Below are positions 58,756 to 60,715 of a DNA stretch of 64,000 nucleotides, piece after piece. The stretch spans positions 416,001-480,000 of the forward strand of contig JBBCGK010000001.1 of the NCBI GenBank assembly GCA_037200965.1, read 5' to 3'. Positions within the stretch are counted from its first letter, which is position 1, and the number at the start of each line of letters is the position of its first letter. The position numbers were made by a program, and so were the translations under genes. Source of the DNA: a bacterium. GTDB taxonomy: Bacteria > Patescibacteriota > Minisyncoccia > Phycocordibacterales > Phycocordibacteraceae. The notes under the pieces were generated by a model that was not told where the DNA came from, made no database searches, and was given only the letters and a program-made list of their open reading frames with translations.

Positions 58756-59418
58756 TCCGCAACAAGTTGCACAACCTCCTTTTTACGAACGATCCTGCAG
58801 GACGATATCCACAAATCACTGCTGCGCAGCGCGGGCCTCGCGCATCTCTCGGCGGATGAGATTGGGGACTTGAGGGACTTGGCAGCGCATGAGCTACGGA
58901 ATGAGACCGCGGACCGCGGTGGTCTCATGGCGGGATTGCGACTGCGCCTGCAACAATGCGACACACGGCTATCACGCCTTACAGACGCGCTCCTCGACCA
59001 CCTCATCGAAAAGCAGGAATACGAAGCCAAGAAGGCCGCGCTCCTGGGCGAGCGGCGCGAACTGCTAGACAAACTGGAAAGCCCGGAGGCTTCGCGTCAA
59101 CCCGCCGACGGCGTGCTGCAAGCATTGGAACTGCCAGATGTCGTGGAAACACGCTACGAAATGGCTTTGCCGGACCAACGGCGCCGCATTGCGTCTGCAA
59201 TCGCTTGGAACCTAACTGGTAGCGGAAAAGAGGCCGTACCTGAGCTGAAATCTCCGTACCGGGAGATCGTACAGTGGCGTCTTTCCAATCCGGTGCGCCG
59301 TAACGGGGAGCGATCGGAACCTGACATAAAGCTGCTATACGAAGCGCTCAAAGAAGTCTGCCGGCGAGAAGACAAGCCGCCGCAACGTCCCCAACGTCCT
59401 GATGTCTCCGGCATATAA
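58756..59418 (+). pseudogene. N-terminally truncated recombinase-like ORF (C-terminal coiled-coil region resembling large serine recombinases); no catalytic domain
   Basis: The frame is open from 58756 (through the repeat), but the first usable start is the TTG at 58870. ...RLSRLTDALLDHLIEKQEYEAKKAALLGERRELLDKLESPE...DQRRRIASAIAWNLTG... matches the leucine-rich coiled coil and tail of large serine recombinases. The similarity is from memory, not a search. Confidence 0.35.
58765..58801 (+). repeat. 37-bp direct repeat, copy 2 (right boundary of the cassette)
   Basis: Identical to 56549..56585. Lies inside the open frame that continues into 58870..59418. Confidence 0.8.
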
Positions 59419-60715
59419 GGCGACATACTTTTTCGAGAATTGTCGCGCCTTATGCCGCGTGAATGTCAGGCAGATGCTGTTCTGCATGGATGCGAGCATC
59501 AGCTACTTCGCCCGCACCAACTTCCGCAACCGAAACCAGCTCTTCGGTGTGAGGCAAGCCGACCGTCTTTCGCACCTGTACGTCATCGGCAAGACTGGCA
59601 CGGGCAAGTCCACCCTCCTTGAAACCCTCGCCCGGCAAGACCTTCGGGCCGGGCGCGGCTTCGCCCTCATAGACCCGCACGGCGATCTCGTGGAACGGAT
59701 CGCGAGGGACGCGCCGGAAGCCGTCTATCTGAACGCCCCCGATCCCTCCCAGCCCTTCGGCTATAATCCGCTCCGGAGGGTCAGGGACGACAAGATACCG
59801 CTTGCCGTCTCGGGCTTCCTCGAAACCCTCAAGAAGCTCTGGCCCGACGCGTGGGGCGTGCGCATGGAGCACGTCCTTAGGAATACGCTGTATGCGCTAT
59901 TCGAGCAGGAGGATGCGCGGCTTCCCGATATCCTCCGCCTCTATGCCGACGAGACATACCGGAAGGCGCTCGCCAAGGGGATTAGGAACGATACCGTCCG
60001 CCGCTTCTGGCTCCATGAGTTCGAGCACTTCCACTTTCGCCAGAGGGCGGACGCCGTGGCTCCGATACAAAACAAGATCGGGGCGCTCCTTGCCGACCCC
60101 ACGCTCTATCGCATCCTCGTCGAGCCAAAGGAGGATATCCGCTTCCGTGCCCTCATGGACGGCGGCGGGGTTCTTCTGGTCAATCTCTCGAAGGGCAAAC
60201 TTGGCGAGGACAGCTCGCACATCCTCGGCGCGCTCATCGTCTCGACCCTGGGCCTTGCTGCCTTTAGTCGGGCCGACAGTCCCCCAACCTCCCGCCGCCC
60301 TTTCTTCGTCTATATCGACGAATTCCAGTCCTTCACGACCCTTATGCTCGCCGACATGATGTCGGAGCTGCGGAAGTACGGCGTGGGCCTTACCTTGGCG
60401 CACCAATATATGCACCAGCTTGAACCCGAGATACGGCATGCGGTTCTGGGGAACGCTGGGACGCTCATATCATTCCGTGTTGGCCCCGAGGATGCGTCAA
60501 TCCTGGCGAAGGAGTTTCAGCCGACGTTTGACACACACGATCTCCTGAACCTGCCTAACCACCATATCTATCTGAAGCTGATGATTGATGGGGTGCCGGG
60601 CGGGGCGTTTAGTGCAAATACAGTCGATCATTCGACGCGGGGAGAGACAAAGCTCGCACCGCTACGAAGGACTTCAGACTTGAATGCGGGCGAAAGCGCG
60701 TCTGACTATGTGTGA
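59402..60715 (+). CDS. TraD/VirD4/TrwB-like coupling-protein-family ATPase (paralog of 5554..7545)
   Basis: LYVIGKTGTGKSTLLETLARQDLRAGRGFALIDPHGD; Walker B FFVYIDEFQSF; collinear with the other copy at roughly 45% identity by eye. Confidence 0.6.
   Translation: MSPAYKATYFFENCRALCRVNVRQMLFCMDASISYFARTNFRNRNQLFGVRQADRLSHLYVIGKTGTGKSTLLETLARQDLRAGRGFALIDPHGDLVERIARDAPEAVYLNAPDPSQPFGYNPLRRVRDDKIPLAVSGFLETLKKLWPDAWGVRMEHVLRNTLYALFEQEDARLPDILRLYADETYRKALAKGIRNDTVRRFWLHEFEHFHFRQRADAVAPIQNKIGALLADPTLYRILVEPKEDIRFRALMDGGGVLLVNLSKGKLGEDSSHILGALIVSTLGLAAFSRADSPPTSRRPFFVYIDEFQSFTTLMLADMMSELRKYGVGLTLAHQYMHQLEPEIRHAVLGNAGTLISFRVGPEDASILAKEFQPTFDTHDLLNLPNHHIYLKLMIDGVPGGAFSANTVDHSTRGETKLAPLRRTSDLNAGESASDYV

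Follow-up and report, generated by a model that had tools for sequence, protein, structure and literature searches.

The stretch of DNA analyzed here (hereafter the window) comprises 64,000 nucleotides (nt) of the forward strand of contig JBBCGK010000001.1, positions 416,001 to 480,000, from a Parcubacteria genome of the Candidate Phyla Radiation (CPR). Near its right end, the 3' end of a large serine recombinase gene (hereafter the stub) is followed by an intact gene for an ATPase of the TrwB/VirD4 type, and the two very probably represent the remnant of a dead integrative element of the mobilisable type lying in foreign DNA. Both genes constitute fragment B (58802-60715), which starts right after the second copy of a 37-nt repeat, R. 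A separate foreign fragment, A, lies between the two copies of R, so that each copy forms the 5' edge of a foreign fragment. The remnant is ordinary and changes little alone; notable is its setting, a recent capture of foreign DNA by a CPR genome.

The stub lies in a forward-strand frame (58756-59418) which is free of stops over 220 residues and ends in a stop codon at 59416-59418. Translation confirmed the original prediction made for this region, namely an open frame that contains the second copy of R and whose first start codon, a TTG at 58870, yields a product of 182 amino acids (aa); the GenBank model, WDN10_02710, starts at an ATG at 58927 and comprises 163 aa. The recombinase part proper (58802..59418, plus strand) amounts to about 205 codons for the coiled-coil and the C-terminal tail, with the native stop kept. 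Its best comparator, reached via synteny, was a 516-aa recombinase encoded at a locus (L003) of a 4.0-Mb contig in the same assembly, with Resolvase (residues 5-147), Recombinase (174-256) and Zn ribbon (272-318) domains. The stub product aligned to residues 304-514 of this protein with 61% amino acid identity over 214 aligned columns, and the DNA showed 75% nucleotide identity from 58803 on. The homology of the DNA to recombinase genes begins at 58802, directly past the point where the relatives have the final cysteine of the zinc ribbon. The resolvase catalytic domain (PF00239) is not in the stub, whose alignment to the relative only starts at residue ~304, and neither the Recombinase domain (PF07508) nor the zinc ribbon (PF13408) is in it. 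The missing N-terminal part was also sought elsewhere: a tblastn search with the N-terminal 310 residues of the recombinase found nothing within the 64.7 kb examined, i.e. the 64-kb window and a 0.7-kb extension up to the end of the contig. Devoid of all three domains, the stub product would be unable to cut or join DNA.

Pfam and NCBIfam scans of the 220-aa product gave no match, a PHROGs scan matched phrog_95, an integrase family, over positions 457-549 of its 651-position profile, and a word-indexed protein search retrieved only the stub itself and P0002, a 369-aa "recombinase family protein" from a Rhizomicrobium metagenome-assembled genome (MAG), residues 192-330 of which match with 43% identity. 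An exhaustive HMMER search of 1.84 billion representatives raised the number of relatives to 390, and 15 of the best 149 were at least 480 aa long. All six long relatives tested (about 518-542 aa) contained the Resolvase and Recombinase domains, and five of them the Zn ribbon too, the match to the stub falling at about residues 300-500. The three relatives of intermediate length that were tested (370-435 aa) all begin within the recombinase domain, and the short ones start at scattered internal points, such as the NPFYIG motif or just ahead of the zinc ribbon. Such scattered starts indicate that the short relatives are partial gene calls or fragments rather than a family with an N-terminus of its own. 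The profile searches thus returned relatives among serine recombinases only and no unrelated full-length family, and the claim that the frame encodes a recombinase C-terminus without catalytic domain was borne out. On sequence grounds, what is left of the large serine recombinase gene is its 3' part, coding for the region after the zinc ribbon; the stub is inert and presumably a pseudogene fragment. Truncated recombinases were also seen elsewhere, with 385 aa in the second copy at locus L004 and 369 aa in a Rhizomicrobium locus (L001).

The second gene of fragment B (59486..60715, plus strand) encodes a soluble ATPase of 409 aa, assigned to the fold of the hexameric TrwB/VirD4 coupling proteins. 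The original prediction had it run from 59402, the first in-frame ATG (437-aa ORF), to 60715, overlapping the 3' end of the recombinase frame, and assigned it to the coupling-protein family. This assignment was upheld by Pfam, PDB and Foldseek comparisons, whereas the overlap was not: in an alignment with 22 homologues the conserved N-terminus is at M29 (59486), the GenBank model also has 409 aa, and 59486 is probably the true start. With that start, the 17-nt overlap with the stub is probably not real and a spacer of 67 nt takes its place. The Pfam family TrwB_AAD_bind scored 36.5 bits against a cutoff of 20.5, and TrwB was the only match in a sequence search of the PDB (E=4e-9), with an alignment that extends across the P-loop. 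Walker A (GKTGTGKS) is found at residue 63 and FVYIDE at residue 302, in the numbering of the 437-aa ORF. An AlphaFold2 model was obtained with a mean predicted local distance difference test score (pLDDT) of 74 and a predicted template modelling score (pTM) of 0.76, with helices across residues 101-211. In Foldseek, ranks 1-29 were all TrwB (TrwB-deltaN70), with E~1e-10, TM ~0.55 and ~400 aligned columns, followed by HerA, Cag-beta and VirB4. The ATPase is thus predicted, with moderate model confidence and at the level of the fold, to share the overall architecture of TrwB including its all-alpha domain. The P-loop is preceded by just ~34 residues, and no transmembrane anchor was found in the protein, the peak of 19-residue hydropathy (1.51) falling within the ATPase core, at residue 271.

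The ATPase is of full length, and no column invariant in the family is changed in it. At least 7,999 homologues were found at E <= 1e-10, those among the matches listed being 70-83% identical; all that were named came from Rhizomicrobium MAGs. Identity to P0004 was 83% over the full length, and no closer protein appeared among the matches listed from a set of 5.8 billion proteins. IMG/VR held only 18 relatives, with at most 58% identity, and phage records did not exceed 28%; an origin from a prophage or satellite was considered unlikely, given that close relatives are essentially absent from viral collections. A modest mad8 match (59.7 bits) is the sole basis for reading the ATPase as part of a defence system.

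The two genes of fragment B belong together elsewhere. A serine recombinase gene (508-597 aa) is found just upstream of the ATPase gene in eight loci, namely L003, L004 (two copies), the contig of P0004, L090/L091, L092/L093, L094 and a Sulfitobacter plasmid, the ATPase of the latter being 49% identical. Order and strand are as in the window in L003, both copies of L004, L090 and L094, and the DNA of the window is collinear with positions 9316-11145 of L003; in some of the loci the two genes are on different strands or have one or two small genes between them. The usual order of the backbone consists of an ArdC-like gene, a gene for a protein of ~170 aa, a helix-turn-helix (HTH) gene, a gene for a protein of ~430 aa, the serine recombinase and the ATPase, followed by variable cargo that includes Fic, a ubiquitin-like protein with an E1-like enzyme, SMC-like and NERD/SEC-C proteins. 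The stub and the ATPase gene are a fragment of the backbone of this widespread element family. None of the ArdC-like, ~170-aa, HTH and ~430-aa genes was found by tblastn in the window or its extension. The ~430-aa and ~170-aa proteins had no match in Pfam, NCBIfam, PADLOC or, by sequence, the PDB. The ATPases of L003, L004, L090, L092 and L094 are 75-92% identical, whereas the C-termini of the neighbouring recombinases do not align, indicating that the ATPase gene is a slowly evolving part of the backbone and the integrase is interchangeable.

Gene content, the basis for classifying the element, points to an integrative element of the mobilisable type. In the intact element, the recombinase would serve for integration and excision and the ATPase would pump or hand over the element DNA during transfer. 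No relaxase or type IV secretion genes were found in the window, nor adjoining the ATPase gene in the eight related loci. A Replic_Relax gene and a 695-aa type IV coupling protein (T4CP) are present elsewhere in a composite island of the 4.0-Mb contig, and L094 contains a separate 905-aa TrwB-like protein ~3.7 kb downstream of the ATPase. In the window, the ATPase may still be expressed, with no recombinase, relaxase or secretion partner nearby. No published description of the element family was found, in work that included no literature search aimed at it.

The genome that carries the remnant belongs to a Parcubacteria (CPR) bacterium, of which a split 16S gene, a 23S intron and unlinked rRNA genes are typical. 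The 16S gene (17773-20084) is split by a 733-nt insert overlapping a 247-aa ORF (18731-19474, minus strand), the 23S gene (4.3 kb, region 32753-38226) contains a group I intron at 34304-34520, and the two genes are ~14 kb apart. Immediately left of the foreign DNA lies tatD (55718..56533, minus strand; Pfam TatD_DNase, E=7e-63), the last gene of the conserved block EF-P, S18, SSB, S6, TatD, whose conserved start is probably M7. To examine this locus, 80 TatD relatives were taken with their loci from GTDB species genomes; they came from Patescibacteria or Parcubacteria MAGs, one being labelled Bacillota and a few unclassified. The order TatD-S6-SSB-S18-EF-P is kept in nearly all of the 80 Patescibacteria loci, and a MetRS gene is found upstream of tatD in 40 of the 40 loci with enough flank, at a median distance of 155 nt. 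No MetRS gene is found in the window; the adjacency of metG and tatD is broken, so that the essential metG must be elsewhere in the genome. Synteny stops exactly at the first copy of R. The ~15 nt upstream of tatD (56534-56548, CTTTTTATGCTATCGT) still resemble the closest relative, as seen by comparison with L010 and L015. No homologue of the genes in fragment A, the recombinase, the ATPase, or the ATP-grasp and nuclease genes described below was detected within 10 kb of tatD in the 80 relatives. The region is therefore not syntenic across the related genomes compared.

Fragment A (56586..58764, plus strand) is identical, at 2179 of 2179 nt, to positions 8647-10825 of locus L005, part of the 4.0-Mb contig JBBCBH010010880.1 from the same deadwood metagenome. 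It contains a MazG/PRA-PH-like ORF (56595-56903) and a PurA/PurZ-like gene of 343 aa (56900-57931), both recognized by domain matches, a gene for a 250-aa protein with no family assigned (57940-58692) and, at the right end, a 59-nt stub of a P450 gene (58706-58764). In the identical counterpart, the shared sequence starts within an intact kinase-MazG gene of 297 aa (AAA_18 plus PRA-PH), of which the window keeps residues 193-297, and stops after the first 59 nt of a P450 gene of 402 aa. Being cut inside genes at both ends, fragment A is an internal piece of a larger island and not the self-contained cassette that had been proposed. Fragments A and B were probably acquired separately, given that their nucleotide identity to the same 4.0-Mb contig is 100% and 75%, respectively.

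The PurA-like enzyme scored just under the cutoff of the PRK04293 adenylosuccinate synthetase model (362 versus 368 bits) and reached 219 bits with the PurZ model, whose cutoff is 300; its P-loop reads GSEGKG. A set composed of a nucleotide kinase, PRA-PH and an adenylosuccinate-synthetase-like enzyme, variously fused, was seen beside the recombinase-ATPase backbone in two more loci. On the basis of the domain set, this recurring module covers 56595-58692 in the window, 8071-10753 in L005 and 14716-16803 in L090. It may be a nucleotide-modifying or defence module; PADLOC gave nothing for it beyond a dCTPase-like match for the kinase part. Contig L007, from an earlier MAG assembly of the same strain, is identical to the window in the host flank (8616 nt) but has two differences inside fragment A, at 57597 and 57739, where the window agrees with the 4.0-Mb contig and with both Logan contigs. 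These differences could reflect mixing of the consensus between two genomes, or repeated exchange between them.

The repeat R (AGTTGCACAACCTCCTTTTTACGAACGATCCTGCAGG, 37 nt) occurs exactly twice on the plus strand, at 56549-56585 and 58765-58801, and 100 shuffles gave zero matches to it. The first copy forms the junction between host DNA and fragment A, as it also does in L007, and the second, inside the frame of the stub, the junction between fragments A and B. No further copies were found in the rest of the window with up to three mismatches, nor a third one in the extension up to the contig end with up to 12 mismatches and all 11-mers. Neither R nor either of its halves was found, with mismatches allowed, in the 80 related Parcubacteria loci, the intergenic regions of which are too diverged for this to be decisive. 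R was also missing from the donor-like contig and its island, from every related element retrieved, from IMG/VR and, searched with a 24-mer core, from JGI metagenomes. No folding was predicted for it (z = +1.2), and a scan for promoters and terminators over 56300-61000 remained at chance level. The reverse complement of R holds a perfect Shine-Dalgarno-like AAGGAGG, with the first tatD ATG 25 nt away and no start codon at a usable distance on that minus strand; R ends in an 8-nt palindrome, CCTGCAGG. The translation of the second copy (C..S.LR) can be aligned with the last zinc-ribbon cysteine, for which R was considered as part of the recombinase gene. This was rejected, as DNA identity to the L003 recombinase gene is at chance level within R and ~80% right after it.

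Right of fragment B, the window contains an ATP-grasp gene of the cyanophycin-synthetase/RimK-like type (60851-61855, plus strand), a small 101-aa ORF (61948-62253, minus strand) and a gene for an S1/P1 nuclease (62349-63332, minus strand); an Endonuclease_NS gene follows beyond the window, in the extension of the contig. This flank (60716-64000) is non-syntenic with the relatives. The best relatives of the S1/P1 nuclease, at 55% identity, are on multi-Mb contigs, the named ones being proteobacterial, and the 4-mer composition of the nuclease region falls outside the range of 2-kb windows of the host. The right flank is thus probably foreign as well, in a patch that reaches the end of the contig. 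The foreign patch, at least 8 kb long, stands in place of the conserved metG side of tatD and is a mosaic of DNA of proteobacterial type, a foreign origin to which the Rhizomicrobium MAGs, as nearest named relatives of the ATPase, also point.

The presence of exact 37-nt direct repeats, adjoined by a recombinase remnant and a transfer-type ATPase gene at a locus missing from relatives, would be expected if a complete integrative element had been inserted by its own recombinase, with the repeats as attL and attR around the cargo, and had decayed in place, as the original prediction supposed. Such an origin is quite improbable. The stub and the ATPase gene are outside the segment bounded by the repeats, and this segment of 2179 nt, instead of an intact integrase and complete genes, contains no integrase and, as the comparison with its identical counterpart shows, breaks off within a gene on either side. 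No serine recombinase is known to leave long direct repeats. This, together with the position of the stub outside the repeat-bounded unit, argues that the repeats are not att sites of the element, contrary to the att-like role assigned to them before. The absence of R from the donor-like island and related elements, and the different identities of fragments A and B to one contig, also speak against decay in place. Of the decayed integrative or mobilisable element proposed for the region, the remnant is supported by the gene pair in eight loci, but nothing shows that a complete element decayed in place. An assembly chimera, in which a 2.2-kb segment common to two genomes had joined the host to a stub and ATPase gene from another organism, was likewise weighed. 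Fragment A is indeed an exact repeat within the metagenome, the region is at the end of a contig, everything right of the first copy of R is non-syntenic and in part compositionally unlike the host, and the source assembly, JBBCBH, is a hifiasm-meta co-assembly of PacBio HiFi reads from four samples of beech deadwood (PMC11613949). However, an otherwise unknown 37-mer flanks fragment A on both sides, tying both junctions to one molecule. L007, a MAG contig obtained independently from Illumina data (GCA_015655515.1), extends from FtsK via TatD and the first copy of R across all of fragment A. An independent contig of 6629 nt from another assembly (GCA_015689235.1) contains the last ~140 nt of A, the second copy of R, fragment B and the nucleases without branching. 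Logan contigs from one Illumina and one HiFi run stop at the borders of A or contain R attached to it, the latter being the case for L008, from the Illumina run. HiFi reads would moreover be expected usually to span 2.2 kb. A chimera is therefore highly unlikely.

That the ATPase gene, and perhaps the coiled-coil ORF, were co-opted by the host, for example as an orphan T4CP for DNA uptake or CPR type IV secretion, is rather unlikely. It would agree with a full-length ATPase with all family-invariant residues kept, with a stub frame unbroken up to its native stop and with the 5,713 VirD4-like homologues found in Patescibacteria, mostly distant from virB4 (PMC12102498). However, no relative has the ATPase gene near tatD, no partner genes are nearby, a recent acquisition would equally leave the gene intact, and the conservation within the family (75-92% identity) says nothing on selection in this host. 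There is also a small chance that the locus next to tatD is a capture site with repeated uptake, by a repeat-associated mechanism, of mobile DNA of a neighbouring, possibly host, bacterium. By analogy, fragments each headed by the same 37 nt might recall CRISPR-repeat integration or target duplication at a staggered cut. Were this so, the 100% identical patch of 2.2 kb would identify the physical partner organism.

Several points weigh against reading fragment B as the remnant of a dead element of the mobilisable type in captured DNA. The origin of the 37-nt repeat is not accounted for. The frame of the stub is unbroken up to its native stop, and a residual role is possible. A near-identical donor of fragment B was not found, JGI metagenomes giving one weak match of 46%; the element family yielded no relaxase, origin of transfer or att site, and its ~430-aa protein has no match. 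Finally, only ~0.7 kb of the contig lies beyond the window, so that the far edge of the patch and metG are outside the sequence seen. Regarding how the dead remnant came to its place, fragments A and B may have been captured separately via illegitimate recombination. On the most economical account, fragment A would have been inserted illegitimately beside a pre-existing junction of R and B, with the 37 nt being duplicated next to B. Microhomology was seen at one place only, the right junction of A, where it reads CAACAA(G)TTGC.

The region represents a read-supported case of very recent flow of DNA into a CPR genome. Fragment A would have come from a much larger bacterium of the same community or from a mobile element that this bacterium also carries, and identity of this kind could nominate host-symbiont or neighbour pairs for Parcubacteria, the partners of which are mostly unknown. 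Beyond the locus, the remnant points to a very abundant backbone with interchangeable serine recombinases and defence-like cargo, the recurring cargo including the PurZ-like, MazG and kinase module.

Compared with known systems, the stub corresponds by homology to what follows the zinc ribbon (coiled-coil motif and tail) in large serine recombinases, such as the integrases of the phages phiC31, Bxb1 and A118 and, from transposons, TnpX and TndX, and its full-length relatives show the canonical order Resolvase, Recombinase, Zn ribbon. Unlike these enzymes, it retains only the last ~205 residues, without the catalytic serine domain and both DNA-binding domains. The ATPase resembles TrwB (R388), VirD4, TraD and TraG in having a Walker A/B nucleotide-binding domain with an inserted helical domain. 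By contrast to TrwB, to which it is ~19% identical, it has no N-terminal membrane anchor, and unlike coupling proteins it has a serine recombinase, instead of a relaxase, as its neighbour in the eight loci inspected. The intact relatives of the remnant resemble integrative and mobilisable elements (IMEs) and actinomycete integrative and conjugative elements (AICEs), as they pair an integrase with a single ATPase of the FtsK/VirD4 superfamily, carry an ArdC-type anti-restriction gene, a small regulator and variable cargo including defence-like genes, and have no mating-pair apparatus of their own. They differ in that the family has no recognisable relaxase or Rep gene and that its named hosts are Alphaproteobacteria, not Firmicutes or Actinobacteria. 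Lastly, the capture of foreign fragments cut arbitrarily inside genes, with a microhomology of at most 1-5 nt at a junction here, is like the illegitimate integration of DNA taken up by naturally competent cells. The exact 37-nt flanking duplication is not a usual signature of illegitimate or homology-facilitated integration, for which no anchoring homology was identified here, and sets this locus apart from such events.

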